A DNA stretch of 64,000 nt, from positions 1-64,000 of IMG/VR virus record IMGVR_UViG_3300043331_001676; one strand, 5' to 3'. The notes under the pieces are model-generated. The model saw only the letters and a program-made list of their open reading frames with translations. It ran no database searches and was not told the origin of the DNA. A program made the translations under genes and the position numbers. This document shows, piece after piece, positions 14,612 to 54,237 of the stretch (position 1 is its first letter; each line of letters starts with the position of its first letter). Source of the DNA: a virus.

Positions 14612-14645
14612 ATCAGAACGAGCGTTTCGAGAAAGGACACTGACG

Positions 14646-15644
14646 ATGGGCGAAAATAGCAAGATTGAATGGTGTGACCACTCCTGGAATCCGTGGATTG
14701 GCTGCGTCAAGGTTAGTCCTGGCTGCAAGTTCTGTTATGCCGAGGAGCTAATGACCCGCAAGGGGCGCTGGGCCAACACATGGGGACCGGCACAGACTTC
14801 CGAACGGATTAAAACCAGTGATGACAACTGGCGCAAGCCCTTGCGGTGGAATCGACAGGCCCAAAAAGAGGGACGGCGGTTCAAGGTCTTTTGCGCGTCG
14901 TTGGCCGACGTGTTTGAAGATAATCCCCAAGTTTATGATTGGCGGCTTCAGCTATTTAGCCTTATTAGCGAGACGCCTAACCTGGATTGGCAGATACTAA
15001 CCAAGCGGCCTGAATTTGCCAGGGCGTTTTTTGAGAAGCGCCCACACTTGCTTTGGCCCAATGTTTGGCTTGGTACGAGTGTCGAAAATCAGGAGCAAGC
15101 CGATAAGCGCATACCCGAATTGCTCAGGACCCCGGCTCAGGTTCGTTTCCTGAGTTGTGAGCCGCTTTTGGAGCCGGTACGGTTGGCTGATGCGTGGTTA
15201 TATGATTATGTAACTGATAGGCGAGACGCTTGTTTTATTGATTGGGTCATTGTTGGCGGCGAATCAGGACCGCAGGCGAGGCCGATGCACCCCGAATGGG
15301 CGTGGCAAATCGAGCGGCAATGTGAAGCGGCAGGCGTAGCCTTTTTCTTTAAGCAGCACGGCGAATTTATTAGCAAACCCGAAATTGCCGATTTGACCGA
15401 AGATGGATGGAAGGTCAGGCCAGAATGGTTGCCGATGATTCAAGGTAGCCGGTGGGGTTGTCTTGACATCAACGGAAAGTACAGGCCGGAAACTACAACC
15501 TGGAATGGGCGGCAAAATGATCCACAGGATGATTATGAGGTTACGGTTTATAAGGTCGGCAAACATAACGCTGGTCGCCTGCTCGATGGCCGGACGTGGG
15601 ACGAGTTCCCCGACACCGCCACGCTTGAGCCGGCCACACTTTAA
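14646..15644 (+). CDS. DUF5131 / phage Gp37-Gp68 radical-SAM-like protein
   Basis: SKIEWCDHSWNPWIGCVKVSPGCKFCYAE, LTKRP, FLSCEPLL, WVIVGGESG, FFKQ; AAAGGA RBS. Confidence 0.92.
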   Translation: MGENSKIEWCDHSWNPWIGCVKVSPGCKFCYAEELMTRKGRWANTWGPAQTSERIKTSDDNWRKPLRWNRQAQKEGRRFKVFCASLADVFEDNPQVYDWRLQLFSLISETPNLDWQILTKRPEFARAFFEKRPHLLWPNVWLGTSVENQEQADKRIPELLRTPAQVRFLSCEPLLEPVRLADAWLYDYVTDRRDACFIDWVIVGGESGPQARPMHPEWAWQIERQCEAAGVAFFFKQHGEFISKPEIADLTEDGWKVRPEWLPMIQGSRWGCLDINGKYRPETTTWNGRQNDPQDDYEVTVYKVGKHNAGRLLDGRTWDEFPDTATLEPATL

Positions 15645-15661
15645 TCTCTTGAGGGAGGGTT

Positions 15662-15970
15662 ATGAGTATGCGAATCGGAGACAAAGCCACCTACACGGGC
15701 ACGGCCTACCCCTGGGCCACCGGCCGCGAAGTCGAGATCAAGGGGATCATCCGGGATAACCGGACCATCAAGGATAACGTGCTGCTGGACGCTACAGGCG
15801 GCACCCGGGAGAGCGACCACGTGATCTTCTCGCTGCTGGATGCCGATGGCTTCCGGTTTAGCGCGCCGGATGCGCGGCTGGGGGATTTTGAGGTGCAGCC
15901 GGTGATTGCTCAAGCGCCGCTGGGTGCGGCCGTGGAGGCTGCCGAACCGGAATTCCTAACGCTCGTTTGA
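15662..15970 (+). CDS. Hypothetical protein
   Basis: GGAGG RBS. Confidence 0.65.
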   Translation: MSMRIGDKATYTGTAYPWATGREVEIKGIIRDNRTIKDNVLLDATGGTRESDHVIFSLLDADGFRFSAPDARLGDFEVQPVIAQAPLGAAVEAAEPEFLTLV

Positions 15971-15973
15971 ACG

Positions 15974-16002
15974 TTGATTTCGGGATTCGAGTGTGATAGA
16001 CT
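15974..16002 (+). promoter_or_regulatory. Promoter of the methyltransferase cassette
   Basis: TTGATT-17 nt-TAGACT with extended -10 TG; the 12-bp palindrome lies just upstream. Confidence 0.5.
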
Positions 16003-16179
16003 GAATAAAATAAAATTGCCTTGACCCGTCCTGCCGCCAAGCTAAGCCGGGTCAAGGCTGATGACAGGAGTCCGCAGGTAAGGGCAAACTACCGTCTTTT
16101 GCTATTATACCATGCTTTGCCCCCGACCGGGCAAGTTTGCCGCCTCGCCTGTTGATTCCACAAACGGGATCAGCGATCA

Positions 16180-17730
16180 ATGCCAAAATACAAACCTATA
16201 GGTCAGGGCCAGGGTTGGACCGTTATTAAGGCTGATGTGCTAGATTACCTGGTTGGCTCGCTCTGGCTGCGCCAATACTACGGCGAATATTTCCATTTCC
16301 TGTTTGACGATTGGCCCTATAACCTCGATTCTATCACCCGGCGGTTCGGCCCAGCGGGCAGCGCCCCGGCTCAATTTGGCCGGGACGGGGCCTTTGCCCG
16401 GCAGTCACGCGGATTCATGGGGCAAACCTGGGACACTGATTTGGCCTACCAGCCGGAAACCTGGACCACTATCCTACCCCATCTCTACCCCGGCGCGTTT
16501 ACCGCCAGCTTCAGCCATCCCCGAAAGCAGCACCGACTGGCGCTGGCCCAGGAGTTAGCCAGGTTTGTGATAAATCCGGCGCTGTACCAGATCGGCTGGG
16601 TGTATGCAAGTGGCAAGCCGAGCGGGACGCGCATTGACACACAGATTGACCGGCGAGCTGGGGCCGAGCGGGAAGTGGTGGGGCAGGTAAAACGATGGGG
16701 TCACAATGCAGGGGCCGGCTCCGGCAGCTTCTATGCTAATGGATATCAGGCCACCACCGGCAGAGCGAAACTTGACGTTATTACTACCCCCGCCACCGCC
16801 CTGGCCCAAACCTGGGCCGGCCATCAATACGGCTCACCCCTGGCCCCGGAACTGGAACCGATCATTATCGCTCAAGCTCCCTGGCCAGAGAACAGGCTCG
16901 ATACCATCTTGAAAACCGGCGCAGGCGCGGTCAATATCGAGGCGGGGAAAAATGGGATGCCGGAACGGGGATACCCCGGCCACTTTATCCTCACGCATCA
17001 TCCTGGATGTGGCTACCTGGGCGAGAAGCGGGTCAGGAACGGCAGCGGTGACGTGACCGGCCAGGAGCCGAGCAGCCAGGCTTACGGCAAGACATTAAAC
17101 ACTTACGCCGGGAACTTTAAGCCCAAACCCTATCAAGCCAAAGGGGACCAGGACGGCTATATCAGCGTCCCTGATTACGATTGCCACCCGGATTGCCCGG
17201 CCCGGCGGCTCGACGAGCAGGCGGGCGAAAAGAGTTACCACTTCTACCAGGCCGACTGGACGTATGATATTCAGGAGCGCCTGGCCGGGATCAATCCGCT
17301 TTATTACCAGGGCAAGGTCACTGCGCTTGAGCGCAATGCCGGCTGTGGCCAACTGCCGCTTAAGGAGAGGCGGCGAGTCAATCCGGGCGGGCTGGAACGA
17401 GAGAAGCGATTCGCGAGTACCTGGCAGCACAATGATCACCCTACCCTGAAAAGCATCAAGTTGTGCAAGTGGATTGCTGGCCTGTTTCTGCCGCCGGAGC
17501 AGTACCGGCCCAGGCGGGTCCTTGTGCCGACCTGTGGCACGGGCAGCGAAATGATCGGCTGCCTGCTGGCCGGGTGGGATGAGGTAATTGGGGTGGAATT
17601 AAATGCCGGTTACGCAGAGGTGGCCTGCCGGCGCCTGGAGTGGTGGTCCAGGCATCTGGAATGGGGCCTGAATGATGTGGACCGGATTATGGCCAGCGCC
17701 AGGACGGGCGCGGCCCAGGCAATGTTTTAA
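16180..17730 (+). CDS. Phage DNA N6-adenine/N4-cytosine methyltransferase (beta class, divergent motifs)
   Basis: DWPY (DPPY-like), GFMGQTWD, EPIIIA, HPTLKS, VLVPTCGTGS, IGVEL. Confidence 0.85.
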   Translation: MPKYKPIGQGQGWTVIKADVLDYLVGSLWLRQYYGEYFHFLFDDWPYNLDSITRRFGPAGSAPAQFGRDGAFARQSRGFMGQTWDTDLAYQPETWTTILPHLYPGAFTASFSHPRKQHRLALAQELARFVINPALYQIGWVYASGKPSGTRIDTQIDRRAGAEREVVGQVKRWGHNAGAGSGSFYANGYQATTGRAKLDVITTPATALAQTWAGHQYGSPLAPELEPIIIAQAPWPENRLDTILKTGAGAVNIEAGKNGMPERGYPGHFILTHHPGCGYLGEKRVRNGSGDVTGQEPSSQAYGKTLNTYAGNFKPKPYQAKGDQDGYISVPDYDCHPDCPARRLDEQAGEKSYHFYQADWTYDIQERLAGINPLYYQGKVTALERNAGCGQLPLKERRRVNPGGLEREKRFASTWQHNDHPTLKSIKLCKWIAGLFLPPEQYRPRRVLVPTCGTGSEMIGCLLAGWDEVIGVELNAGYAEVACRRLEWWSRHLEWGLNDVDRIMASARTGAAQAMF

Positions 17731-17796
17731 GCGGGTCCTTCGTAAATTCTAAACGAGCGTTTCAAAGTAAGGCGGCGGAGAAAAACAAGGAGTGCA

Positions 17797-18993
17797 ATGA
17801 ATCACGACACATCTATCGAGGCCAGATTTGAAGGACATGAAGTCGTCGAAGCTGGCACAGCTACCATCCCTCACCTGCTTCTGTGGCATTATCGTGACCT
17901 GGGATTGGTGGATGCTCAATTCACCCTGCTCACTCTGATCATTGCCAGGAAGTGGACCAGGGAAGCCCCCTATCCATCCCTGGCCCGGCTGCCCATGACC
18001 GCCAATTTGGACAGCCGGCGGCGCTATGTCCGGGACCTGCGCCAGAAGGGCCTCATTTTTACAAGCCGGCTTTACTGGACCAATAAGGACATAGAGGGAA
18101 ATCCGAGCGCCAGGCCGGGGCGCGTCAGGTCCAATATATGGTATCTGGGCAGCCTTTTTCATAATCTGGTCAGGATTCACCGCTGGCTCCACGAAGGCAA
18201 TCCCGCAGCATCATTTTGCGTTGAAATCCCCCTGACCACGATCAAGATGTTTCTCAAGGGCGATTTTCACGATACACCGGAATATATCATCAACATTATC
18301 AATCAGCAGACTCAGGGTGGGGTCGTTCTCAAGACAGTTACTCTACCGTGCGAAAAACGCACAGTAGGAAAATCTACTATGCGTTTTTCTAGTAGTAGTT
18401 TTTCTAGTAGTAGAAAAACGCATAGTCATGAAGAAGAATCAGAGTCTAAGAAGAATCAAAAGAAAAAGAAGAATAAGGTAAAGGGCGCTGACGCGCCGCC
18501 TCTTCATGGGAGGAACAACCTGCCGGCAGAGGTGGCTATCAAAACCAGGGTTAAGGAAGTCTTTTGTCTAAAGACAGGCTTAAGCATGCCCCGACGCAAA
18601 ACGGATCAAAACTTCTGGTGGTCCAACTTTGGCGAGATCGCCAGTATTGCCGAACAAAACATCGAGCGGGCCGAATGGCTGGTCGAGGAGGTCATTACTT
18701 ACATGACAGATGAGCACCTGACTATTTCCGGCCCGCAAAGCATTGTAAATCTGTGCCGGTCGTTAGCCGCCGGCCAGGTATTAGCAAAAGGAGGTACTAA
18801 GAAAGATGGACAAACTAGACGCAGTAATATCAAAGGTTTACGAGAAAACGGCAGCGATAACCCCATCAAGCCAATCTTCGACCCCGACACCGGGGAAGAT
18901 TACTACGTTGACGCCCGATCCGGGCAGCGGGTCCATCCTGACGGCTGCCCCTGCTACGGGTGCCATCCAGAGCACCGACCCGACCCAGCCTGA
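17797..18993 (+). CDS. Replication initiator protein
   Basis: N-terminal wHTH (YPSLARL...RRYVRDLRQKGLI), central iteron-coded low-complexity linker, precedes a DnaC-like gene. Confidence 0.75.
   Translation: MNHDTSIEARFEGHEVVEAGTATIPHLLLWHYRDLGLVDAQFTLLTLIIARKWTREAPYPSLARLPMTANLDSRRRYVRDLRQKGLIFTSRLYWTNKDIEGNPSARPGRVRSNIWYLGSLFHNLVRIHRWLHEGNPAASFCVEIPLTTIKMFLKGDFHDTPEYIINIINQQTQGGVVLKTVTLPCEKRTVGKSTMRFSSSSFSSSRKTHSHEEESESKKNQKKKKNKVKGADAPPLHGRNNLPAEVAIKTRVKEVFCLKTGLSMPRRKTDQNFWWSNFGEIASIAEQNIERAEWLVEEVITYMTDEHLTISGPQSIVNLCRSLAAGQVLAKGGTKKDGQTRRSNIKGLRENGSDNPIKPIFDPDTGEDYYVDARSGQRVHPDGCPCYGCHPEHRPDPA
18346..18480. other. Probable replication origin within the initiator gene
   Basis: Perfect 16-bp inverted repeat 18376-18391/18411-18426, 15-bp direct repeats GTTTTTCTAGTAGTA, then an A-rich tract. 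Confidence 0.7.
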
Positions 18994-19855: not shown

Positions 19856-20266
19856 ATGTGGCTCTTTACAACCTTCGGCTTTTTCTCTGTCGTCAAAAAG
19901 CACGGCGACACAGATTTAACCGTTCGCGCTCGTGTGGCCGCCGACCTGGACAATCTCAGAACGCGCGTTCCCGAACTCTCGGAGACTATTGCCACCCCGG
20001 ACCAGGATTACCCGTACCGGGCCACCGTCTCGGCGGTAAACCTGGCTATCGGCCTGGGTGAGGCGATCCAGGAGATTGACTACGATAACTTCAAGGCCGA
20101 GGGACCCATTGGGCCGACACTGGCCCGGCGGCAGGGCTATTTCCGGGCCGGGATGTACAGCCAGGTCTGGATGGGGCTGCATAACCTGCCTTATGAAGCG
20201 GGAAACCCTTCGACCTTGCTGGCCTCTCCGGGCCACTTCGTCTGGACAGGCCCTGATGTCAAGTAA
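19856..20266 (+). CDS. Conserved phage hypothetical protein
   Basis: MWLFT.FGFFSVV..VRAR..DYPYRA..IDYDNFK; GGAGGT RBS. Confidence 0.7.
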   Translation: MWLFTTFGFFSVVKKHGDTDLTVRARVAADLDNLRTRVPELSETIATPDQDYPYRATVSAVNLAIGLGEAIQEIDYDNFKAEGPIGPTLARRQGYFRAGMYSQVWMGLHNLPYEAGNPSTLLASPGHFVWTGPDVK

Positions 20267-21818: not shown

Positions 21819-22958
21819 ATGACCAATCAAATTCAAACGACGCCAATCACAATACCGCTGGCCAAATTAAAAACAGGCCGGTACCAGCAGCGCAAGGCGT
21901 TTGATGTAGCCGAGATGGGCGGCCTGGCCCGGACAATAAAAGCCGGCAAGCTAATGTTTCCACCTATGGTTATGGCAGTCAACGGCCATTATGAGCTGAT
22001 TGCCGGCGACCGGCGTCGGCGCGCGCTGTATGCCCTGGCCCTGGAATCAGACGGCATGGGGATGGACCAGGCTTTAACCCTGGTTTGCAGTCCGACCGTA
22101 GACCAACTGCCGGACCGCTTCCCGGTGCTGCACAAGATAACAGTGCAGGTCAATCTGAGCCAGGAAACCGACCCTGCCACCCTGCAAACCCTGGCAGCAA
22201 TCGAGAACCTGCAACGGGTTGATTTGACCCCACTGGAGAAAGCAGTGGGGTTTCAAAGTCTGCTCGATGACGGCCTGACCCTGGCCGAGGTTGTCGAGCG
22301 TACCGGCGAAAAAGCCTCTTCCATCAAGCGCTATCTGGCCCTGCTCTCGCTGCCGGAGCCTGTTCAGGAACATTTCGACAAGCGGCGTATCCCCCTTGAT
22401 GTCCTGAAAGAACTGAGCGGGCTGCCCAAAGAAGTACAAATCCAGGTAGCCGAAAAGATGGCAGGCCGCAAAAGTAGTGAAATCAAGGCGCTGGTCAAGA
22501 TGGTTCAGAAGCGGCTGTCTAACTCGCCTCGTGCAACCCCCGGTAACGGATTATCAACGCTGCCGGCGTCGGAAACGGAAGGGGTATCGCTCGGTCTGGA
22601 TAGTACAGAAGTGGAAGCCAATGCGATAGAAACCCGGCCCGCCTCGATTCGGGAGCAGTTGGCCGGGGCGAAGGAGATAATCTCCAAACTCACCATGCAG
22701 CTTCACCTGGATAGCCGGTTACTTAGAATGTGCGCGGAAGAGTTAATTGCTTGCACTCCCGACTCGCGCGTAGCGCTGATAGCCAACGCCAGAGCTGAGC
22801 AAATCGAGCGGTCAATCAAGCTGCGCAAGCGGCAGCCGCCGGTGGCCCAGGTGCAGCGTGGTCTAAAGATCGAGCGCTTCATGGAGAAGCGGCAGCGTGG
22901 CATCAGGCTTCGTCCTGAAGCTCAGCCCGAAGGGAGGCGAGATGCCCAACCTGGTTGA
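21819..22958 (+). CDS. ParB/Spo0J-family protein
   Basis: YQQRK.F, YELIAGDRRRRA, IENLQRVDLTPLE, HTH. Confidence 0.85.
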   Translation: MTNQIQTTPITIPLAKLKTGRYQQRKAFDVAEMGGLARTIKAGKLMFPPMVMAVNGHYELIAGDRRRRALYALALESDGMGMDQALTLVCSPTVDQLPDRFPVLHKITVQVNLSQETDPATLQTLAAIENLQRVDLTPLEKAVGFQSLLDDGLTLAEVVERTGEKASSIKRYLALLSLPEPVQEHFDKRRIPLDVLKELSGLPKEVQIQVAEKMAGRKSSEIKALVKMVQKRLSNSPRATPGNGLSTLPASETEGVSLGLDSTEVEANAIETRPASIREQLAGAKEIISKLTMQLHLDSRLLRMCAEELIACTPDSRVALIANARAEQIERSIKLRKRQPPVAQVQRGLKIERFMEKRQRGIRLRPEAQPEGRRDAQPG

Positions 22959-24303
22959 TGAAGCAGTCCGCCAACTTGATACAGCCCTGGTCTGGCTCGA
23001 AGTACCGCAAGGCAACCGTCGCTATGGGTGGCATCGGCAGGAAGATGCGGTTCTGCGCCGGTGGTGGGGGAAAATTCCCCGGCCCGAACTGGCCCGGCGC
23101 GTTACCGGCGCGCTGCGTCAGGCAACCGGAGACAATCAAGCCGAACGGAGCATCAATGCCTGCATGAACCGGGCCGCTGAATTGGCCCTTGTCGCCTATG
23201 ACGGTGAGCCGGGGGAAACTTATCTCAAGCGGCTTTGCGAGGAGTCGAATGCCCCCTATGAAATGGCGCACAAGTCGGTCAGAGACGGCGAACTGGCCGC
23301 GACGAAAAAAGGCAAGAAACTGTACGTCACCGACCTGGCCTGGGCGCTGTGGCTGACAAGCTACCGTGAACGGCTGCTCACTCAAGGCGAGGTTCTGAAC
23401 GCGCTTGAAGGCGAAGTGGTCCTGACCAAGCGTGAGGCAATGAAATTTACCTGCCTGTCTGAAACTCATCTCGCCCGGTATTTACAGACCGGGGTTATCC
23501 AGGCGTGGCTGCTGCCGGGTATCAAAACCGGCAGGCCGGGAGAGTGGCTGGTGAGTAAAGCTTCAGCCGAAGCTTTTGTTCAGGCGCGTTCAGAAGGCCG
23601 GCTGCGGGCGCTGCTAGATCAAAACCCGAAGTATGTAGCCTTGAGAAACCAATTGACCGGCCAAATTGGCGGGCTGCGCCGGGCCGGCCGGTTAAACGAT
23701 GCCGACCCTCTGACAGAGCCGCAAAGCCTTTACCATCCCGGCTGCTTCACCATCAAGCAGGTGGCCTCTCACCTGGACCTATCTACCCAGGCCGTGCACG
23801 AGGCAATTGCCACTGGCCGGGTCAAAGCAAAAATCATCGTTAAAGGCGGCCGGCCACGCTACGCGATCACGCCGGAGGAGGCCCGGCGCTACGCCGGGCA
23901 GGTAAAGAGCCAGTCTGATACCGCTATCCGGCGCGACACCTGGTATCTGCGCCAGATTAAAGAGGCGAGACTGCTTACGGTACGCGACCTGGCCGAGCGC
24001 TGGCATAGATCGGAAGCGACGGTTCTTTTATGGGCCAAAAAAGCGGGTCTGCCGCGCCGCCGCTGGGGCCGGTACTGGGTCTTTGAACCGGAAGCTCTTG
24101 CTTCATTTGAAGCCACTAATTTCTTGACCCTGAGCGACCTGGCCCAGCGGTGGGGTAAATCTCCCGCTACGGCCGGGTTGTGGACCCGGCAGGCCGGATT
24201 ACCCAGACGCCGGTGGGGCCGGGGGTGGGTATTTGAGCTTGACGTTATCACCTCGTTTGAAACCAGGAAGGGAATTCAGGGTGAAGCAGTTAGATTTTCT
24301 TGA
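22942..24303 (+). CDS. Protein with tandem excisionase/MerR-like HTH domains
   Basis: At least 4-5 units: LTKREAMKF, FTIKQVASHL, LTVRDLAERW, LTLSDLAQRW; GGAGG RBS. Confidence 0.7.
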   Translation: MPNLVDEAVRQLDTALVWLEVPQGNRRYGWHRQEDAVLRRWWGKIPRPELARRVTGALRQATGDNQAERSINACMNRAAELALVAYDGEPGETYLKRLCEESNAPYEMAHKSVRDGELAATKKGKKLYVTDLAWALWLTSYRERLLTQGEVLNALEGEVVLTKREAMKFTCLSETHLARYLQTGVIQAWLLPGIKTGRPGEWLVSKASAEAFVQARSEGRLRALLDQNPKYVALRNQLTGQIGGLRRAGRLNDADPLTEPQSLYHPGCFTIKQVASHLDLSTQAVHEAIATGRVKAKIIVKGGRPRYAITPEEARRYAGQVKSQSDTAIRRDTWYLRQIKEARLLTVRDLAERWHRSEATVLLWAKKAGLPRRRWGRYWVFEPEALASFEATNFLTLSDLAQRWGKSPATAGLWTRQAGLPRRRWGRGWVFELDVITSFETRKGIQGEAVRFS

Positions 24304-25504: not shown

Positions 25505-25555
25505 GGTGGAATTCCAAACGCGCGTTTTGATTTCTTGTAGCCATAGGATTATCCG

Positions 25556-26220: not shown

Positions 26221-26406
26221 GGGCCGGTGAGGCAGCAAGCCGCCGGCAACACCCAGGCTGCAAAACAAAGACCCCCACACCAGGAATAACCCGGTGTAGG
26301 GGACGGTCACAGAACGACCGGAGCGGGCAGAGCGGGGAGTATGGGAAGGGTCGGGAGAGTACGCTCGCCTTCACGGTCGAGAGTACGGCACTAACGAGAG
26401 TGCCGG
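26221..26406 (+). ncRNA. Candidate structured non-coding RNA
   Basis: About 190-nt gene-free gap with five predicted hairpins and a recurring GAGAGTAC motif; no known family recognised. Confidence 0.3.
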
Positions 26407-26534
26407 GAGGGTGATTGTGACTGATCTCATCCTACAACCAATTGGTTTGCTGTTCAACCCCAATTATTGGGGGTACTAAGGATAAGTTCGCAGGCCGGTC
26501 TCCCAGAATTATAAACGAGTGTTAGGAGATTTAA

Positions 26535-26918
26535 GTGATGCCATTTTCTCAAGAGGACCTTATCAGGGGCTTCGGCGACAAACTGTTTGGCCTGCTCACA
26601 ATGACCCAGGCCGACCTGGAAGCGATCCAGGCGCGGGTAGAGGCGGCGACACCGGGGCCGTGGGAAGGGCGACCAAGGCTTTTGCATAATGGTCGGGAGA
26701 TAAGCTGCGAGATCGTGGGGAATATACATCCCGGCTGGGCTACCCCGGTCTGTCAGCTTTCACCCGGCTTTGCCTGGTACGAAAATGACAAAGATTTTTT
26801 GACCAGTGCCCGCACCGACATCCCCGCCCTCCTGGCCGAGATCGAGGCCCTGCGCCGGGCCTGCTACCATTACGCTACCCAGATGGGGCGATGGGGTGAG
26901 AAGGGCAAGAAAAAATGA
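26535..26918 (+). CDS. Ead/Ea22-like phage protein
   Basis: AATPGPW...DFLTSARTDIPALLAEIEALR. Confidence 0.75.
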   Translation: MMPFSQEDLIRGFGDKLFGLLTMTQADLEAIQARVEAATPGPWEGRPRLLHNGREISCEIVGNIHPGWATPVCQLSPGFAWYENDKDFLTSARTDIPALLAEIEALRRACYHYATQMGRWGEKGKKK

Positions 26919-28033
26919 CCGGCTACTTCGGCGTCATCGGCAACCGCGACTACATCAAGATCAAGGGTGAGCGCCGGCCCTTCTGGGAGTTCCTGGACCG
27001 GCAGCCGGCCGGCTGGCTGTGCTCGCTGGCCTACAGTAGAACTGATGTGCCGGCTGCGCCGATGATCTGGGACTGCGGAGCCTGGAGCTACAAGGCCCAG
27101 GAATCGCCCCGGCTGGGCAAAACAGAAGTCACCCCGGCCTGGGCTGCCGGCCAGTATACCCAACTGGCCCGCCCCGGCGATTTCGCCGTCGCCCCCGACC
27201 ATATGCTTATCCCCTTCGCGGGGGTGGACATCGAGGCTCGCCGGCACTTCAACCGCGCCTCGGCCCTGACCTTCATCGAACTCTGCCCGGCCCACCTGCG
27301 CCCGATGGCCGCCGTCCACGGCCTGAGTTTGGCTGAACGAATCGAGAACGCGCGTTTTCTTATGGATGCCGGCTACCACACGCTGGCCCTGGGCGGCCTC
27401 GCGGGGCAGGCGAATAAACGACAGATGATTTTTGAAGTGGTCGGCGCGATCCGCCGTGAATTCCCCGGCGTCTGGCTGCATGTCCTGGGCCTGTCGTCGC
27501 CGGGCTATGCGGCTGAGTGGCAGCGAATAGGGGTGGACAGTTTCGACGGGGCCAGCCACTTCAAGCAAGCCTTCACTGCCGGCAAGTTCTTTATGGAGCA
27601 GGACGGCAAGCTCGCCGGCTACCAGGCGGCCCGGCCTGGCCAGCCTGTCACGGCCCCGGCTTGCGACTGCCTGGCCTGCCTGCGGCTGCGGGCTGAAGGC
27701 GTGGACACCCGGAGCTACGGCTCCAACGAGCATAATATGGGCCGGGCCGCGCACAATCTGAACCAGTTGATGAGGGCTATTGACATCCAGGCCGTGCGCT
27801 CCCCCAGTTTCCCGCTAGATTGCCCGACCGGGGCAGCCGGCCGGCGAGATAACCGCTTGCCGCGCCACTGCGCGGGCTGCCGGTCCTTTCAGGAGAAGGG
27901 CGGCCTACGATGTGTGTACCCTGATTTTGCCAACGATCATCTTGAATTCATCCAGGCTCACCTGGCTCGGACTGGATCGCTGAAAGAGATCGAGTGGACC
28001 CTGCGTGGTGATAACCGGCCCGGGGTCAGGTAA
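26915..28033 (+). CDS. dpdA: DpdA-like DNA guanine transglycosylase (TGT fold)
   Basis: DCGAWSY, APDH, AVHG, LALGGL, LHVLGL, VDSFDGAS nucleophile motif, CDCLAC...HNL zinc site. Confidence 0.8.
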   Translation: MTGYFGVIGNRDYIKIKGERRPFWEFLDRQPAGWLCSLAYSRTDVPAAPMIWDCGAWSYKAQESPRLGKTEVTPAWAAGQYTQLARPGDFAVAPDHMLIPFAGVDIEARRHFNRASALTFIELCPAHLRPMAAVHGLSLAERIENARFLMDAGYHTLALGGLAGQANKRQMIFEVVGAIRREFPGVWLHVLGLSSPGYAAEWQRIGVDSFDGASHFKQAFTAGKFFMEQDGKLAGYQAARPGQPVTAPACDCLACLRLRAEGVDTRSYGSNEHNMGRAAHNLNQLMRAIDIQAVRSPSFPLDCPTGAAGRRDNRLPRHCAGCRSFQEKGGLRCVYPDFANDHLEFIQAHLARTGSLKEIEWTLRGDNRPGVR

Positions 28034-34700: not shown

Positions 34701-34710
34701 AGGAGCACTT

Positions 34711-41062: not shown

Positions 41063-41167
41063 AAGTTTCCAGATATTCCCTTCCTGAGTAGTATATCATA
41101 TCCCGATCCCCAAAATCAACTTTGAAACGCGCGTTGCAAAATAGGTTATTATGAGAGGCGGGTTAAA

Positions 41168-41395
41168 ATGAGCGATGGACTTAACTTTGCAAAGCTGGCT
41201 GAAGCGTGGGACGCTATTTGCCCGCCGCCTTACTACGCAATCGGCGAATACATAGAGCCGGGCAAGGTGCTCTGGGTAAGCGAAGGCAGGCATTACCCGG
41301 AATACATCGTTTGCCACCCGGATGATCTTGAAATGTTTAAGCGCAATATCGTGGGCCGGCGACTGGCCCCCTTGCAGGATTGGCGGCCGGCGTAG
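41168..41395 (+). CDS. Hypothetical protein
   Basis: GAGG RBS; palindrome box upstream. Confidence 0.55.
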   Translation: MSDGLNFAKLAEAWDAICPPPYYAIGEYIEPGKVLWVSEGRHYPEYIVCHPDDLEMFKRNIVGRRLAPLQDWRPA

Positions 41396-42794
41396 GCTTC
41401 GGTCATGCTGCCAGTTCTGGCACCCGAACCTGCTCAGGAGTGATGGGTATCGCCTGCCCCTCCCATTTTGGGCCACAAGTGCCTGGGTTTTGCGGTACTC
41501 GTCGGCCTGAGCGATCAGGGTAAATTCTATCTCCCCGTGATTTTGACGGACAACCTCCTGGATTTCGGCCAGGCTAACCCTGAAGAATTCCTTGCGTAAG
41601 TTGACCTGGTTGATACGCCTGGAGTCGAAACAGTTGTGTAGCTTCGTCTCCAGGGTAGGCGCGTCCTCGCAGAAGATTAGGGCGTGAATGTCGAAGGGGA
41701 ACGGCACGGAAGCGTCGCCCAACTCCTGGATGCGCTCCTCCGGCACAAGCCGGCGCGTCATCCCGATCTTGTATATATCCTCGCCAAAAGAGCCGATGTT
41801 TGAAATGATATAGACATGGCCTGATCGGGTCATCTGGGCGCGGGACATAGCCCGCTCTTTTTGCTCCTGGGCCTCTATTAGCCGCTGCTGAAGCAGCTCG
41901 ATTTGTGCCTGTAGCTTGTCGTGTCTTGCTCCGGTGGCCTGCTCCATTTCAATGCGAGCCTGCTCTAGGGCCTCTTGATACCGCCGCTCTTCCTTCTCGG
42001 CATCCTGCTGCGCTTTTTCTATCTCGCGGCGAGCAATCTCTTCTTGCCGCATCTGCTCGCGGATCTGGCGCTGCTCTTCCTTCTCGGCGTATAGTTTCTC
42101 CTGGTATTCGTGGACCAGGTGCAATTCTTCGATCTTCAGGTCAAAATAGGCTTCATTGATCCAGCAGGTTTTGGTTTTGCCGAGTTTGTTGATGGCATCA
42201 TATAGCGATTTAATGCGCTCTCCGATCCGCTGAATGTTGTCATATTTCACCTTCATAATCAGAGCATCGCACTCCCCGTTGAAGGCTCGCAGCATGAGCT
42301 TCATCTCTTCTTCAACCATCTTGCGGCCTTCCTTCTTGCTGCCGTGAACCGTCCATTCCGTGCCGCAAATGACGGCCTGTTTGGCCTGGATCATTTGCTT
42401 CTGGCGCTGGTGGATTTTATCTATTTCCAGCTTATATCGCTCGGAGGAGCCAAAGTCATATTTTGGTTCATATAAACCGTAGCTTTGAATGTCCAATTCA
42501 CCATCCAGGCTTTTCAACTGGGCATTTAGCTCGGCAATAGCCTTTTTTGATCTTCACCCCTTCTTCTTTCAGCCGATCCTGTTCGGCCTTCAATTGTTCA
42601 TTCTTTTCAGTCAACTTATTGCTGACACTTCTGATTTTGTCCTGCTCGGCCTCAAGGTCGCTAATACCCTTGTACCTGTGCAGCCGCTTCCTCATACCAA
42701 GAAGCTCGTACACCAACCAGCCGATAACGACCAGTGCCGCGATAAACAGTGCGGCTACAAAGAAAGCGATTAAAAAAGATTGCATATTAGACAT
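41396..42794 (-). pseudogene. DUF4041 + T5orf172 (MUG113-like) protein, frameshifted
   Basis: MLRAFNGECD, GHVYIISNIGSFGE..YKIGMTRR, DASVPFPFDIH, RKEFF; N-terminal TM/coil part is out of frame at an A6 run (42543-42548). Confidence 0.75.
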
Positions 42795-43314: not shown

Positions 43315-43352
43315 ACGGGGCTAAGACAACTGTCTTAGCCCCGTTTCTTTTT
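43315..43352 (+). terminator. Intrinsic terminator just before the scaffold gene
   Basis: ACGGGGCTAAGACA/TGTCTTAGCCCCGT followed by TTCTTTTT. Confidence 0.75.
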
Positions 43353-43372: not shown

Positions 43373-44221
43373 ATGTTCGTTCGCCAAAACTTACTGACCC
43401 GGCTCTTTTGGTTTCTTGTCCCGCTTCTGGCCATCTACCAAAGCGACCCGCCAGCCCTGCCGCCGGCTGCCCCACCCGCTCCCCCAGCCCCAGCCCCACC
43501 TACCTCCCCACCCGCCGACCCGGGTGCCGGCGTGCAGGCCCTGATCGCTCGCCACAACAACGACCTGATGCGGGTGATTGACCATCTGTACGGCGACAAC
43601 TTTAGCCTGCGGGAAAAGAACCGGACCCTGAAGGAGCAGGTAAAGGACCTGGGAGAGAAAGCGCCGAAGGATGGCGCGGTGGTCCTGACCAAGGCCGAGG
43701 CCGATCTACTGGAGAGCTACAAGGCCCTCGGCGACATCGAAACGCTAAAGACCGCTCAAAGTGAGCGGGATCAATTCAAGGGAGAGCTAGGAGCGCTCCG
43801 CAAAGACGGCATCCTGCGGGACGTGGCCGAGGTTAGCTCATTCAAGTTCCCGGTACTCAAGACGCTGAGTGAGAACAAAGCGCTCAACGGCGAGACCGAA
43901 CTTGAATTCGAGATCAAAGAAGTCGAGAAGGACGGCCAGAGAAAGAAGGTGGCCTTTGTCAAGAACGGCCCTTCGACAGGCTCAGGACAGGCTTCAGGCG
44001 AAGCCAAACCCCTGGCCGACTACGCCACCGAAAAGTGGGCCGACTTCCTGCCCTCGCTGCAAGCCCAGCCCCAGCCACAAACGAACGGCGTGCCGTATCC
44101 AAGCCAGACAACCGGCGGGCCGCCAGCGCCATCCAACGTCCTGGCCGACTTCAAGAAGCAGAGCCAGGAAGCCCGCGCGGCGCAGCCCAACCCATTGAAT
44201 CCGGTAGTAGGTAGTAAGTAG
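43373..44221 (+). CDS. Capsid scaffolding protein
   Basis: Pro-rich N-terminus, coiled coil, position before the capsid genes. Confidence 0.7.
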   Translation: MFVRQNLLTRLFWFLVPLLAIYQSDPPALPPAAPPAPPAPAPPTSPPADPGAGVQALIARHNNDLMRVIDHLYGDNFSLREKNRTLKEQVKDLGEKAPKDGAVVLTKAEADLLESYKALGDIETLKTAQSERDQFKGELGALRKDGILRDVAEVSSFKFPVLKTLSENKALNGETELEFEIKEVEKDGQRKKVAFVKNGPSTGSGQASGEAKPLADYATEKWADFLPSLQAQPQPQTNGVPYPSQTTGGPPAPSNVLADFKKQSQEARAAQPNPLNPVVGSK

Positions 44222-44271
44222 TAGGGAGTAGGGGAATTTCCCCGTCTACCGTCTACCGTCTACCGTCTACC
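44203..44271. repeat. Paired heptamer arrays (GTAGTAG)n / (CTACCGT)n
   Basis: Direct reading; related arrays at 48315-48360 and 49875-49986. Confidence 0.85.
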
Positions 44272-44294
44272 TCCCAAGAAGGAGATCTCCTATT

Positions 44295-44954
44295 ATGACC
44301 CGACAGACCTTTTATGTTACCAAACCACCCTTTGTGGTTGATTCCAAATCCATTGACCGCAACAGCGGCCGGCAGATAGATTGGTCGGTCGTGCCCGATA
44401 GCTATCGGATGGGCGCGGTCAAGGTCGCGGCTGCGACCGTCGCCGATTCCGGCGCGACCACCATGGCCATTACGGCCATCACCGGCGCGATCCCCAGCGG
44501 TACGAACCTTTATTTCGGCCAGGCCGGCGAATTCGCCCGGCTGGCTGCTGCGGCGGCTGCCGGCGCGACCGCGCTGACCGTGGATGCCCTGGGCACCACG
44601 ATTGAGAGCGGCGACGTGGCCTACTACCCCGGCACCGGGGCCAAGACCCTGCCTGCCGGCAAGCTCCTGGTCGAATTGTCCAGTGGCAAGGTAGCCACTC
44701 GCGCTGAACGGCCCGGTTCTGAGGCGGCCTTTGGGTTTCTCGAAACCAACGCTATCGAGAACGAACCCAGCCACGCCCTGACCGGCTACGGCGTCATCGT
44801 CGGCGGGGTGCTGTTTGAGAACCTGCTGCCGGATGCGGCTGCCGGCACCACCGGCGCGCTGACCGATGCCTACAAGCAGGAGCTGGTCGGCAACACCTCC
44901 AACCCCAAGTCCACCGGCTTTGTCTTTGAACAATACGCCGATAACCGCAGTTAG
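44295..44954 (+). CDS. Head decoration / minor capsid protein
   Basis: KTLPAGK...AFGFL...G.LFENLLP; directly before the major capsid gene. Confidence 0.7.
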   Translation: MTRQTFYVTKPPFVVDSKSIDRNSGRQIDWSVVPDSYRMGAVKVAAATVADSGATTMAITAITGAIPSGTNLYFGQAGEFARLAAAAAAGATALTVDALGTTIESGDVAYYPGTGAKTLPAGKLLVELSSGKVATRAERPGSEAAFGFLETNAIENEPSHALTGYGVIVGGVLFENLLPDAAAGTTGALTDAYKQELVGNTSNPKSTGFVFEQYADNRS

Positions 44955-47501: not shown

Positions 47502-47949
47502 CAAAATTTTGTTTGCCCTGATCCTGATCCTACTTCTGGCTTTTCCGGCGATGGCCCAAGATGCCGACACGCCTCCGGCAACCGCAGCCGAGGGCTTGCA
47601 GTGGCTGGCTGCGGGCCTGGCCGCGCTGGCCGGCCTGCTGGCCTACGCTGTGACCGACGCCATAAAGCGCATCCCCTGGCTGAATGATGAGGAGAAATCA
47701 AAAATCTCCGGCCCGATGGCGAACCTGGTGGCGGCAGTGGTTTCGATTGCCAGCGGCTACCTGGTGGGTAGCTTTGGCCAGGTAGCCGGGTTCCTGGACG
47801 AGAGCGGCCTGTGGCAGGTGGTTGTCTTTGCCTGGCCGGCAGCCAAAGCCTGGTTTGAGGTCACGCCCCGGCATAACTATGTCGAGCTTCAATCGGTACT
47901 GGAAGAGGTCAGAGAGGTCGAAGCGTGGCCCTCGAACCAACAGTCCTGA
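47488..47949 (+). CDS. Membrane protein with signal peptide and 2-3 TM helices (holin-like)
   Basis: AMA|Q signal cleavage pattern; hydrophobic helices. Confidence 0.55.
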   Translation: MKMLNKILFALILILLLAFPAMAQDADTPPATAAEGLQWLAAGLAALAGLLAYAVTDAIKRIPWLNDEEKSKISGPMANLVAAVVSIASGYLVGSFGQVAGFLDESGLWQVVVFAWPAAKAWFEVTPRHNYVELQSVLEEVREVEAWPSNQQS

Positions 47950-50341: not shown

Positions 50342-50350
50342 GAGGATCAT

Positions 50351-50935
50351 ATGGCTGTAGCAGACATCCTGATTACCCCGGTCTGGGTCTGGTCCAGTCC
50401 GGTTGGCACGCCCAGGCCCTACGAGAGCGTGGCCTACGGCGCTGCCTGGCCCGGCTGGAAGCGGCTGGGCTATACCAACAGCCCGCTGACCTCCAATCTG
50501 GAGCGAGAGCGAACCAACAAGATGGTCGAGCAGGCTATGAGCAAGGTCGGCAGCCAGGTGACCGGCGAAACGTTGACCTTTGAAACGGCCCTGGCCGAGT
50601 TCACCCTGGCCAACCTGCAACTGCTCTGGCCGGGTATACTGACGATCACGCCGGCAGCGGTCGGCCAGCCGGGAACCGAGCGGCTGGTTGGGGGCAACAA
50701 AGCCTGCCTTTCGACGCTCCAATGGGGCTTTGAGGGCCTGTACCAGAACGAGGATTGCAGCGTAAGTTTGCCGCTGCGCTTCTGGTGCATTGGTGAGGCC
50801 GAGATGGGCGGCCAGCTCGAATTCGGCAAGGCGACCCAGACGGGGCTGCCGCTCAGGGTCGAGGCCAGCTTCGACTTTGCTACCGGCCAGCTCTACGAGT
50901 GGTTCAAGGTGGTAGCCCCGGCGCTGTCCGCCTAG
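50351..50935 (+). CDS. Major tail (tube) protein
   Basis: WKRLGYT, LAEFTLANL; followed by a terminator and the chaperone gene. Confidence 0.8.
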   Translation: MAVADILITPVWVWSSPVGTPRPYESVAYGAAWPGWKRLGYTNSPLTSNLERERTNKMVEQAMSKVGSQVTGETLTFETALAEFTLANLQLLWPGILTITPAAVGQPGTERLVGGNKACLSTLQWGFEGLYQNEDCSVSLPLRFWCIGEAEMGGQLEFGKATQTGLPLRVEASFDFATGQLYEWFKVVAPALSA

Positions 50936-50958
50936 TTCTGAACGCTCTTTTTTAAATC

Positions 50959-50994: not shown

Positions 50995-51017
50995 AATTTC
51001 CTAAGAGGAGATACAAA

Positions 51018-51742: not shown

Positions 51743-52413
51743 TCACTTTTAACGCCCCTATCGGCCAATACCTCGACCCGGCGGGCCTGGAGCACCTACA
51801 CCTGAGCCTGACCATCGGCCTGCCCCCCGACGCCTCCCTGCCCGAAGCGCCGGGCCGGACCTGCCTGCCGGGGATGCTTGAGCTGATGGGCGCGCGGGTG
51901 GGCGTGGAGGTGGGGGTGCAGCGGGGCGAGTTCTCGGCTTATCTGCTGGCCAACTGGCCGGGCAAGCTGTGGCTGGTGGACCCCTGGCAGGCGCAGGGGC
52001 CGGAGTATGTGGACGTGGCCAACGTATCGAATACTGAGCACGAGGCCAACTACCAGGCCACCCTGGAGGCGATGCGGCCCTTTGCCGGCCGCTACGACAT
52101 CATCCGGGGCTACTCGGCCTGCGCTGCCGGCTTCTTTGAAGATAGCGCCCTGGATTTTGTTTACCTGGACGGCAACCACGGCTACGAAGCTGTGACCCTG
52201 GACCTGAACGCCTGGTGGCCCAAGCTCAGGGTCGGCGGGCTGCTGGCCGGCCACGATTTTTTAGATTACGACGGCCCGCTGGGGTCGTTCCGGGTCCGCC
52301 AGGCGGTGCTGGAGTTTGCTGCCGACCTATCCCCGGTTTCCCACGGGGAAAGGGAACGGCGGGTTTACGCCTCCCGCGAGCCGTGGCCGTCGCTGTGGTA
52401 CATCGTGAAGTGA
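51739..52413 (+). CDS. Methyltransf_24-like SAM methyltransferase
   Basis: VEVGVQRGEFS, LVDPW, DFVYLDGNHGYE, GGLLAGHDF. Confidence 0.85.
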   Translation: MITFNAPIGQYLDPAGLEHLHLSLTIGLPPDASLPEAPGRTCLPGMLELMGARVGVEVGVQRGEFSAYLLANWPGKLWLVDPWQAQGPEYVDVANVSNTEHEANYQATLEAMRPFAGRYDIIRGYSACAAGFFEDSALDFVYLDGNHGYEAVTLDLNAWWPKLRVGGLLAGHDFLDYDGPLGSFRVRQAVLEFAADLSPVSHGERERRVYASREPWPSLWYIVK

Positions 52414-52772
52414 TGAGTGGGTTAAACTTCGACATCTTCCAGGCCCCGGAGATCCGGGATCTGCTCAAGACCAAGGCTCACCTGCTACGGGCCGGCCTGT
52501 CGGCGGATCACGTGGTCATCGAGACCTTTAGCCAGATCGTGGCCGTCTACCGCCGCCGGGTTGGGTTGGAGACATTCCTGAGTCAGATGTTGGGCGAGAT
52601 AGCCACAACTCCGATTCAGGACTGTCAACTGTACCGGGCCAGCGGCGAGCCGGTTGATACTCATGGCGCTCACGGCCAGCCGGTCCAAAGATTTATCGCC
52701 CGTGGCTTTTCTGATCGAAGCCTGCTGGCGGGCCTTCGGGTGGTGGCCGGCGGGCAAGAGCGGTATCTGTAA
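52413..52772 (+). CDS. Hypothetical protein
   Basis: TGATG coupling. Confidence 0.55.
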   Translation: MSGLNFDIFQAPEIRDLLKTKAHLLRAGLSADHVVIETFSQIVAVYRRRVGLETFLSQMLGEIATTPIQDCQLYRASGEPVDTHGAHGQPVQRFIARGFSDRSLLAGLRVVAGGQERYL

Positions 52773-52794
52773 TCTGGAAACGAGCGTTTGAAGT

Positions 52795-54036
52795 TTACAG
52801 CAAAGAGAGCTGACTGCCCTGAAAAGGGGTAATTTGTTTGGGATTGTGAATACGGGTCGTGCGCGTGATAGGTCTAAATGGTGTGCCGGTGTGAAGTTCG
52901 ATGGAGGTCTTTAGGATAGTTTCGATATGACGGTACTCAGTATATGGAATACGAATCAGGATAAAGTTGTGATCCTGGGCAAATTTTGCCTTGATTGCAT
53001 CGCGCCGTTGGGTTTCTTTTAGGTTCTCCCGTCCTCCATAAAATTCAAGGTCTTTAAAGTGATGAGGGCCATCGTATTCTACCAAAAATTGCAACTTGCC
53101 GATTCGAAAATAAAAATCAAATCGCAACATTCTTTTCTCTCGAAGAACACTAAAGCTTTTTTGGTGAACAAAATGAACTTTCCAGGATTTAAGCAGATAA
53201 AGGATACGTTGCTCTCCCTGAGAAGCAGAACACTTAGGGCAACCTTGACCTTGTCCAACATGATTTCCCGGTGTTTGCCAGAAGCTTCCGTGTTGAGAGC
53301 ATATAATTTCAACCTTGACCTTTCCACGCCTATAGACAACTTTGGAATAATCGTACATGTCACCATGTATTCTCCGGGCTTCCTGGATAAAAACATCTTG
53401 CTTCTTGGTATTCTTTATACTTGCCTGATTTTTTCCACATCCAGGGCAACCATGTCCTTTAAGAAAATCGTGGGGACGTGCCCAAAAAGCCCCATGTTCA
53501 TGGCAGATAATTTTCACCCTAAACTTATCGCCATTGTACATAACTTCAGAGTAATTATATCTATTCCCAAAAACAGCCATGCACCCTTTGATAAAGCTGT
53601 CCTGAGTCCTGATTCTGGTTTGCGCCCCCTTTTCCTTACCGCATTTAGGACAACCGGCTCCACGAAGATGGTTACTGGGCACTTGCCAAAAACTCCCATG
53701 TTTAGGGCAAACGATTTCAACCTTAATTTTATTGCCTCTGTATTTTATCTTAGAGTAATCATATTTGCTTGCGTGAATGGATTTAGATTCCTGAACAAAA
53801 GAATCGTGAGACCTCCTTTGTACTTTGGAACGCTGCTCGTTGGCACATATAGGGCAGCCATGACCCTTATGCCCCAGATGATCATGGGGTGTCTGCCAAA
53901 AACTTCCGTGCTGAGGGCAGATGATCTCGACCGGGATTCTGTTGTTCGTGTATTTCACATTGGAATAATCGTACCTATCTCCATGTACCTGTCTGGATTT
54001 TGCAATAAAGTCATCTCTGGTCATCTGTTTCGGCAT
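52795..54036 (-). CDS. Homing-type endonuclease: four zinc-ribbon repeats (DUF723-like) plus a Vsr/DUF2726-like nuclease domain
   Basis: Four YDYS..Y......IIC..HG.FW..P..H...GCP.C units; S.GE, LRFDFY, VEYDGPHH, D..K, LIRIPY; AT-rich. Confidence 0.85.
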   Translation of the reverse strand: MPKQMTRDDFIAKSRQVHGDRYDYSNVKYTNNRIPVEIICPQHGSFWQTPHDHLGHKGHGCPICANEQRSKVQRRSHDSFVQESKSIHASKYDYSKIKYRGNKIKVEIVCPKHGSFWQVPSNHLRGAGCPKCGKEKGAQTRIRTQDSFIKGCMAVFGNRYNYSEVMYNGDKFRVKIICHEHGAFWARPHDFLKGHGCPGCGKNQASIKNTKKQDVFIQEARRIHGDMYDYSKVVYRRGKVKVEIICSQHGSFWQTPGNHVGQGQGCPKCSASQGEQRILYLLKSWKVHFVHQKSFSVLREKRMLRFDFYFRIGKLQFLVEYDGPHHFKDLEFYGGRENLKETQRRDAIKAKFAQDHNFILIRIPYTEYRHIETILKTSIELHTGTPFRPITRTTRIHNPKQITPFQGSQLSLL

Positions 54037-54078
54037 ATTTTTAACCCGTACAAAAAAGCACTCCTGACGTTGATTGCC

Positions 54079-54176
54079 TGATTGTTGCCACACAAGAGGA
54101 ATCACGCCAGGGGTGCTCATCTGGAATAATAGCAAGCCCTAATTATTTCGGCAATTCTCTTGTGTGGCAACAATCA
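54079..54176. repeat. Perfect 20-bp inverted repeat in the endonuclease leader
   Basis: TGATTGTTGCCACACAAGAG (54079-54098) and its reverse complement (54157-54176). Confidence 0.9.
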
Positions 54177-54237
54177 TTATAGCACATTTGAGCTACGAAT
54201 TTCAACTATTAAACGAGCGTTACGAAAAAGGTGATTC

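Follow-up and report, generated by a model that had tools for sequence, protein, structure and literature searches.

The window analysed here comprises the first 64 kb (64,000 nucleotides) of the 79,023-bp viral contig G000, which has a G + C content of about 59%. Its subject is a short dispersed palindrome with the core AACGNNCGTT, which most likely marks an operator network specific to this phage and akin to the stoperator and KorB systems, a new form of a familiar mode of phage control. The contig is linear according to its IMG/VR class and has a CheckV completeness estimate of 81%. G000 is an uncultured temperate tailed phage from soil, probably of Chloroflexota; near-identical DNA is present in soil metagenome runs, with no RNA run among the runs listed. 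Relatives of its terminase were found in prophages of Chloroflexota (Herpetosiphon, Caldilineales, Ardenticatenaceae and Anaerolineae), and the host is therefore probably a member of this phylum. Besides an immunity region and a large serine integrase gene (Table 1), the gene map features a DNA-modification and replication block (DNA methyltransferase, DnaD-like, DndC/PAPS-reductase-like, ParB, multi-HTH, Cas4-like exonuclease, SAM methyltransferase and two TGT-like proteins) and a structural and packaging part (small and large terminase, MuF-like protein, major head protein and further unannotated head and tail genes). Pfam and PHROG scans covered about 90 proteins; most early genes stayed unnamed, and the scans yielded no DNA-binding candidates beyond those discussed below.

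The original prediction had listed about 14 copies, and the motif was confirmed at all 14 listed positions. The whole contig holds 16 sites, comprising 14 copies of the core (12 in the window, plus 69310 and 78499) and two degenerate sites (26513 and 50940). Comparison with shuffled sequence revealed a clear excess over background: AAACGNNCGTTT has five exact matches against 0.04 expected, and a tolerance of one mismatch yields 12 window positions, where 1.28 were expected and no shuffle gave more than 4. These 12 positions are 11 of the listed sites and 19738, a weak extra outside the earlier list. The three other listed sites show two mismatches (19959, GAACGCGCGTTC; 26513, AAACGAGTGTTA; 50940, GAACGCTCTTTT). 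A 26-bp symmetric weight matrix, trained on the 16 sites that it scores, gave these sites values of 18.6–33.1, with the next matches at or below 17.4; the null maxima were mostly in the range of 7–16, with two outliers at 19.4 and 21.1. By the same matrix the first 14 kb are free of sites, as had been noticed before, the best match there (12816) scoring 12.5, which is inside the null range. On average there is one copy in every 5.6 kb. An origin of the sites by sequence duplication was not supported, since no homology extends past about 15 nt of flank, save for the promoter shared by 15957, 41125 and 54211.

The true unit is about 24 bp in length and reads A-N2-T-N2-AAACG(M)(K)CGTTT-N2-A-N2-T. 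Its two central bases are AG, CT or CG in 15 sites and TG in one, and the centre is non-palindromic in 12 of the 16. The suggestion that AT-rich flanks extend the symmetry holds at fixed positions, with A at −6/T at +6 and T at −3/A at +3 each found in 12/16 sites on both strands. Elsewhere it does not hold: positions ± 1, ± 2 and ± 5 pair in 6/16, 5/16 and 3/16 sites, which is the chance level. The best copies are GAATTCC-AAACGCGCGTTT-TGATTTC and GACTTTC-AAACGCTCGTTT-GGAATTC. In the arms the sequence itself is conserved, beyond mere complementarity, and changes in the outer arms are mostly non-compensatory. Symmetric conservation of sequence without conservation of pairing is the signature of a symmetric protein on double-stranded DNA, here over about two helical turns.

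Ten of the 16 sites are wholly non-coding, compared to 7.3% non-coding sequence in the contig according to the gene map of this analysis (binomial p = 2.4e-8). Two more (15957 and 32790) span the last codons and the TGA stop of the upstream open reading frame (ORF). The copies thus do lie mostly between genes, as first proposed. Overlap with a stop codon, proposed for three copies, is found at these two; 41125 falls within the final 13 codons of an ORF on the minus strand. The copies at 19959, 27346 and 35261 are the only ones placed deep inside genes, and the two lowest-scoring sites are among them. Sites at gene junctions are located 4–46 nt past a stop codon and 10–34 nt ahead of a start codon, directly upstream of the Shine-Dalgarno sequence. 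At 8/10 asymmetric junction sites the central AG runs with transcription, a bias that is not significant.

A relaxed scan for sigma-70-type promoters on both sides of each site (32 site-sides) found three sites docked to a promoter, with the −35 box beginning exactly 5 nt from the motif in each case (Table 1). With a background rate of 8.4e-4 promoters per position, finding three such cases at a single offset among 32 site-sides corresponds to p = 2.8e-6. The conserved T at +6 of the operator is at the same time the first T of the −35 box. All three docked promoters serve accessory, moron-like genes, among them ORF 40829–41062, which has 77 codons on the minus strand. Canonical TTGACA-17-TATAAT promoters are known in this host group from the lexA promoters and from a repeated promoter of phage G545. 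For the other 13 sites, no sigma-70-type promoter was detected through, towards or away from the motif. The sites are hence divided, as in an operator network, into a promoter-docked minority (3/16) and a promoter-less majority (13/16), and the promoter-less sites stand ahead of the opening genes of identifiable blocks (replication, modification, packaging, head and tail). On the minus strand at 66120–66200, past the window, a promoter (TTGACA-17-TATACT) drives three small genes; its spacer carries CCGTTTATAAACGG, with CCGTTAATAAACGG directly downstream, and the AAACG/CGTTT pentamers are those of the dispersed motif in everted order.

Table 1 Features of contig G000 referred to in the text
Feature	Position	Strand	Remarks
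CI-like XRE repressor gene	7949–8608	−	faces Cro-like XRE gene
Cro-like XRE gene	8730–9071		
Large serine integrase gene	9425–11032		
Site GAACGAGCGTTT	14616–14627		junction type; 18 nt upstream of ATG 14646 of unknown PHROG 2045 gene
Site TAACGCTCGTTT	15957–15968	+	on TGA stop of ORF 15662–15970; promoter-docked
Promoter TTGATT-17-TAGACT	15974–16002	+	after TAACGCTCGTTT-gaacg at 15957; towards DNA methyltransferase gene
DNA methyltransferase gene	16180–17730	+	
Site AAACGAGCGTTT	17751–17762		20 nt past methyltransferase stop; 34 nt ahead of DnaD-like replication gene (17797)
Weak intragenic copy GAACGCGCGTTC	19959–19970		inside ORF 19856–20266; sole site also fitting GAAC-N4-GTTC
Orphan ParB gene	21819–22958	+	ParB_N with intact, invariant GDRRRRA arginine box; HTH_ParB
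Multi-HTH protein gene (HTH_17 and others)	22897–24303	+	weaker candidate binder; overlaps ParB gene end (22897 vs 22958)
Site AAACGCGCGTTT	25516–25527		perfect palindrome; 11 nt past Cas4-like exonuclease gene; 28 nt before SAM methyltransferase gene (25556)
Degenerate site AAACGAGTGTTA	26513–26524		10 nt ahead of ORF 26535
Weak intragenic copy GAACGCGCGTTT	27346–27357		inside TGT/DpdA-like gene 26915–28033
XRE-family HTH gene	28048–28404	+	candidate binder; 118 aa; weak site 27931 about 105 nt upstream
Site AAACGAGCGTTT	32790–32801		on stop of ORF 32294–32803; 23 nt ahead of small terminase gene (32825)
Intragenic copy AAACGAGCGTTA	35261–35272		inside ORF 34663–36354 (presumed portal), directly after large terminase
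Site TTTCAAACGCTCGTTTGGAA	38789–38800		top score; 13 nt ahead of MuF-like gene (38814)
Promoter TTGATT-18-TATACT	41090–41119	−	TG-extended; after CAACGCGCGTTT-caaag at 41125; towards ORF 40829–41062
Site AAACGCGCGTTG	41125–41136	−	in last 13 codons of minus-strand ORF 41096–42517; docked on leftward promoter
Degenerate site GAACGCTCTTTT	50940–50951		4 nt past ORF 50351–50935; next ORF 51018
Site AAACGAGCGTTT	52778–52789		between convergent genes 52215–52772 (+) and HNH 52795–54135 (−)
HNH endonuclease gene	52795–54135	−	AT-rich; on opposite strand
Promoter TTGAAA-18-TATAAT	54176–54205	−	11/12 matches; after TAACGCTCGTTT-aatag at 54211; HNH gene
Site AAACGAGCGTTA	54211–54222	−	docked on HNH promoter; 15 nt ahead of ORF 54238–57081
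Sites past the window	69310, 78499		ahead of minus-strand FtsK/terminase-like ATPase genes (69290, 78465)

The immunity region has operators of another kind. Its two promoters, PL at 6818 on the minus strand (TTGACA-18-TATAAT, 12/12 matches) and PR at 8662 on the plus strand (TTGACA-18-TAATAT), are divergent, flank the repressor gene and are the two strongest promoters in the contig. AAATTGCATC precedes both alike. Half-sites of the form ATTGCAT/ATGCAAT cluster only at 6.75–6.85 kb and 8.64–8.74 kb, with TGCAAT-N5-ATTGCA at 8643; they differ from the dispersed motif and probably serve as the operators of CI and Cro. The dispersed motif as the CI/Cro immunity operator was rejected, as it is absent from the immunity region, where PL and PR use the ATTGCAT-type sites.

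Several other features of the contig were recorded. ORF 50351–50935 is weakly matched in PHROG by major tail proteins and Ig-domain proteins, and ORF 54238–57081 (947 aa) occupies the tape-measure position. Strong terminator-like hairpins with 13-bp stems followed by T runs were observed at 43315–43344 (+), where the hairpin closes a low-GC minus-strand island at 41.1–43.3 kb, and at 26272–26302 (−), in the 300-nt gap ahead of site 26513. Past the window, two genes of the PHROG 506 transposase family (66268–66987 and 70065–71189, one of them truncated) share a minus-strand block with two FtsK/terminase-like ATPase genes. In four soil runs, high-depth contigs cover short stretches (38087–38122, 47605–47647, 55597–55632 and bin 44004–44670) and continue into unrelated sequence; these stretches are short repeats common to other organisms of the same soils.

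Close relatives were sought for a comparison of gene order. A nucleotide search of the phage collection returned no match, and a terminase search returned 57 loci (best amino acid identity 72%), none of which carries the G000 motif. Scanning with the 24-bp consensus gave single, chance-level matches in 33 viral and at least 120 metagenome stretches, and none listed has three or more core copies. Soil-metagenome contigs aligned to 36–56 kb were short, low-depth pieces with low-support joints, none at a motif site, and they are uninformative for gene gain or loss. In phage G545 (L088–L090), a near-identical promoter TTGACAAAACTATAGTTTTATAGTAATAT occurs four times (14083, 14857, 26063 and 39070) with an AT-rich palindrome in its spacer; AAAC-N4-GTTT as a theme common to this repeated promoter was not enriched in G545.

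Among the proteins encoded by G000, the orphan ParB is tentatively the best named candidate for a binder. Among relatives of solved structure, Spo0J, ParB and Noc are nearest to it (E-values 1e-28 to 1e-21), followed by KorB at 3e-7, and its closest homologues, P0002 and P0003, are 68–69% identical. Since the contig lacks a ParA gene (AAA_31), a pure role in partition is unlikely. Protein searches of viral contigs with ParB and the XRE proteins found nothing, including no relative of the XRE protein at 28048–28404; a ParB profile retrieved one viral relative, G545, and none in metagenome contigs. The overlapping ParB/multi-HTH gene pair is kept in three mosaic elements (21819–24303 in G000, 16102–18353 in G545 and 10089–12028 in contig 214 of G644), and the multi-HTH protein is 62–64% identical in G545 and G644. 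The DndC/PAPS-reductase-like gene adjoins the pair in G000 and is located 13 kb away from it in G545.

Two look-alikes of the motif were characterised in Chloroflexota. The DNA upstream of lexA in G005, G007, G008, G258 and G529 (L124–L129) contains GAAC-N4-GTTC between or beside the −35 and −10 boxes. Seven full boxes at six lexA genes of these five genomes have a free N4 (GAGT, ACTT, ACCT, AATA, GCGT, ACAG and ACAC), and they provide a usable SOS-box reference for the phylum. G529 has two boxes at each of two lexA genes, the second of the first pair being imperfect. The other look-alike is an iterated palindrome, ACGGCCGT/AACGGCCGTT. In about 550 Chloroflexota genomes, AAACGNNCGTTT was found 0–25 times per genome, equal to a reversed-pattern control, save for G258 and G511, which have 966 and 813 copies of AAACGGCCGTTT; the sample included G153 (count 1), on which no claim rests. 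Within 131 kb of G258 and G511 (L061–L068), AACGGCCGTT occurs 124 times, or about once per kb, with GC as the centre in 121 copies and 87% inside ORFs. The terminase-related phage G001 (L058, L059) carries 16 copies in 33.7 kb, 12 of them inside ORFs. These copies occur in all codon phases and lack flank conservation, and the terminase alignment shows no insertion at them; the G001 motif is the iterated palindrome of its host. G001 and G000 have only the terminase in common. G001 is devoid of ParB, XRE, TetR and sigma domains. The core pattern also occurs in L017, L024, L038 and L039. On contig 3 of G380, at about 2.84 Mb and 4.00 Mb, clusters of AACGGCCGTT look like prophage islands, the rest of that genome being free of the word. 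In the 4.7-Mb genome of G529 (L069–L086), AAACGCGCGTTT appears without conserved flanks and other centres reach at most three copies; the word in G529 may represent a weak variant of the iterated palindrome.

The explanations other than a phage operator differ in what they require of the sites. An intercistronic hairpin or protein-binding site in the mRNA, governing processing or translation of the next gene, would suit the placement of sites shortly upstream of start codons and directly before Shine-Dalgarno sequences, and two of eight sites subjected to RNA folding do fold somewhat better than shuffles (z −2.38 and −1.76). The remaining six fold no better than shuffles (z −0.69 to +0.70), a hairpin cannot close with a 5-bp arm and a 2-nt centre, variation in the outer arm is mostly not compensated, positions ± 3 and ± 6 are kept by sequence and not by pairing, and three copies lie upstream of promoters and would hence stay untranscribed from those promoters. 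We regard an RNA element as highly improbable. It is just as hard to credit that the motif is a dialect of the Chloroflexota word ACGGCCGT, produced by mutational or repair bias and not by regulation. The arms of AACGGCCGTT are the same, the word is frequent in G258, G511 and G001, and G529 has 16 copies of AAACGCGCGTTT, mostly inside ORFs. However, ACGGCCGT does not occur in G000, where no 8-mer palindrome is over-represented. The centre of the G000 motif is in most sites AG/CT and hence non-palindromic, its flanks are conserved while those of the iterated word are not, and 12/16 of its sites are intergenic or on stop codons, in contrast to the word, most copies of which lie inside ORFs in G258/G511 and G001. 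The resemblance of the arms may be a coincidence or may reflect related DNA-binding folds. Binding by the host LexA, with the sites acting as SOS boxes, had been part of the original prediction. The general shape resembles GAAC-N4-GTTC; an opening GAAC is present in four copies, and 19959 (GAACGCGCGTTC) matches in full. The lexA boxes, however, are invariably GAAC-N4-GTTC with an unconstrained N4, whereas in the phage motif the first base is A in 11/16 and the last base T in 10/16 sites, so that the outer G/C is replaced, and N4 is held to G-NN-C. The sole full match in the set is intragenic with poor flanks, and the other GAAC-N4-GTTC, at 9797, falls within the integrase gene; neither is thus at a promoter. 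A role as SOS boxes is extremely unlikely.

Short recombination sites for the gain, loss and swap of genes had also been envisaged. Copies do bracket the DNA methyltransferase, SAM methyltransferase, MuF and HNH endonuclease genes, as pointed out earlier, and the AT-rich HNH unit on the opposite strand is set between direct copies of AAACGAGCGTT (52778 and 54211). Bracketing of some genes is expected, though, because about one in five genes in the interval from 14.6 to 54.3 kb is preceded by a site, and a promoter operator explains one copy in each of two pairs; at the HNH gene, the right-hand copy is the operator of its own promoter. Comparison of breakpoints with the related phage G545 gave no support: its four shared blocks terminate within genes, and three of them (13.8–14.4, 21.9–24.1 and 37.2–37.6 kb) lack the motif at their borders. 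The bracketing pairs have mixed relative orientation (CT/AG, CG/AG and CT/CG), direct copies being present only at HNH, and similarity between flanks stops at the operator and the shared promoter. Integron attC sites are imperfect palindromes of 57–141 bp with paired core sites, served by a cognate tyrosine integrase, and their cassettes share one orientation. The unit in G000, at about 24 bp, is far shorter, and no tyrosine (integron-type) integrase was seen, the large serine integrase being the sole recombinase found. A function in cassette exchange is accordingly very unlikely. A host repressor recruited by the phage, for example a TetR-family protein of the PsrA/PaaR type, has more in its favour. 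Thermus PaaR (TetR family) has been linked with CNAACGNNCGTTNG (PMC6651687), and the lipid-catabolism motif AAtTtAAACgNNcGTTTaAaTT of Shewanella (PMC2532739) has nearly the same core and AT-rich symmetric flanks. Counts of 0–15 copies per host genome would be compatible with a small regulon. Yet the host is not identified, no candidate host genome is enriched over the reversed-pattern control, and a domain scan found no TetR_N domain in the phage. We know of no precedent for a metabolic repressor with sixteen sites on a phage, and this explanation appears improbable. A more specific version of the operator reading makes the sites parS-, NBS- or OB-like loading points of the orphan ParB-family CTPase, which would clamp and slide to silence nearby promoters like KorB on RK2 or Noc at its many dispersed chromosomal sites. 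ParB_N, HTH_ParB and the GDRRRRA box are all present, the nearest solved relatives are Spo0J, ParB and Noc, the family binds short palindromes, and ParA-less members acting at many dispersed palindromes are known in Noc and KorB, the latter working at dispersed operators (PMC11790492). Against this, the G545 (57 kb) and G644 (12 kb) contigs encode a ParB with 53–54% identity and have zero copies of AACGNNCGTT. Because the recognition helices differ (EKASSIKRY in G000, HTRGQIQPF in G545), this absence is only weak evidence against ParB. Furthermore, the parB gene itself has no site, the half-sites (AAAC...GTTT) run in the opposite order to those of parS (GTTTC...GAAAC), and the gene is placed directly downstream of the DndC/PAPS-reductase-like gene, so that the protein may serve DNA modification. 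Taken together, loading of ParB is a credible but not a likely explanation of the sites.

On balance, and with slightly more confidence than doubt, the sequence data point to a double-stranded DNA operator of about 24 bp, with the half-site A-N2-T-N2-AAACG(M) and one sequence-specific protein as its predicted binder. The idea of a genome-wide operator or stoperator set put forward in the original prediction is retained in this general form, supported by the intergenic placement, the conservation of sequence and the division into three docked and 13 promoter-less sites, whereas its LexA part is not. Enrichment, intergenic bias, symmetric conservation, fixed promoter spacing and distinctness from CI, LexA and iterated-palindrome sites are observations; the binder, the direction of regulation and its timing are predictions. 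The binder is most likely a symmetric dimer or a pair of dimers and would form a second regulatory layer apart from the CI/Cro-type immunity switch. At the three accessory-gene promoters the site abuts and slightly overlaps the −35 box. A protein on the 24-bp site would overlap the region-4 contact of sigma and should occlude RNA polymerase, from which we infer repression. At the 13 promoter-less positions the site occupies the narrow space that separates a stop codon from the ribosome-binding site that follows, where a bound protein may act as a roadblock or a clamp-loading point gating read-through of long operons. The clean split between docked and junction sites and the separate CI/Cro switch make the arrangement look like a two-layer control circuit.

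Several findings weigh against this interpretation. No binding protein could be assigned, and G545 and G644 share the ParB and multi-HTH proteins yet lack the motif. No other viral or metagenome contig with several copies was present among the matches listed. Contrary to what autoregulation predicts, no site adjoins an obvious regulator gene. Finally, sites are few or absent in the leftward early operon and in the tail-fibre region, a pattern that a simple model in which all lytic genes are silenced does not explain.

Compared to known systems, the operator set of G000 shows both likenesses and differences. The iterated Chloroflexota palindrome, which resembles HIP1, shares the arms AACG...CGTT and occurs in phages of the terminase family of G000. 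It is an exact palindrome without flank conservation, found about once per kb and equally inside genes, whereas G000 has none. As a caution, such a look-alike (AACGGCCGTT) in related phages can be separated by coding bias, flank conservation and centre symmetry. Operators of the PsrA/PaaR type have a nearly identical core (AAACG-NN-CGTTT), with AT-rich symmetric flanks in the Shewanella motif; these sites are few, chromosomal and part of metabolic regulons, and G000 encodes no TetR domain. In the Streptomyces phage phiC31, which also uses a serine integrase, a conserved inverted repeat (CIR) is present in many intergenic regions and is bound by the phage repressor. The CIR is the autoregulatory operator of that repressor, whereas the G000 motif is absent from the immunity region, and sequence and host phylum differ. 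The OB sites of KorB and the NBS sites of Noc are dispersed over the replicon, some copies beside −35 boxes and others far from promoters. The G000 motif is likewise a short dispersed palindrome, in part beside −35 boxes, in a genome whose own orphan ParB retains the CTP-binding box intact. KorB binds its OB sites on RK2 (PMC11790492); their core, TTTAGCGGCTAAA, is unlike the G000 motif, and the G000 ParB is nearer to Spo0J and Noc than to KorB. That the 16 sites load this ParB-CTPase for long-range silencing in the manner of KorB or Noc, inside a temperate phage and beside a CI/Cro switch, is quite unlikely on present evidence; if the binder were this protein, clamp-based long-range silencing would extend from plasmids to phages.

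The stoperators of L5 and Bxb1 are comparable in layout. In Cluster A mycobacteriophages, some repressor sites are located in promoters and most are promoter-less stoperators (PMC6550527). As in G000, a short site is repeated along a temperate phage, with few copies in promoters and most in intergenic gaps, and the promoter-less stoperators of L5 and Bxb1 block elongation (PMC6550527; PMC9283540). Their sites are 13–14 bp in length, asymmetric and oriented with transcription, whereas the G000 site is a 24-bp palindrome that is asymmetric only at its central AG/CT. In L5 and Bxb1 the sites are bound by the immunity repressor, which acts as a monomer and also governs the early lytic promoter, while the immunity switch of G000 has other operators (ATTGCAT). 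Genome-wide operator sets are well studied in few systems, namely the L5/Bxb1 stoperators, the phiC31 repeats and KorB on RK2. G000 adds an independent case from an uncultured Chloroflexota soil phage, with a palindromic site of 24 bp.

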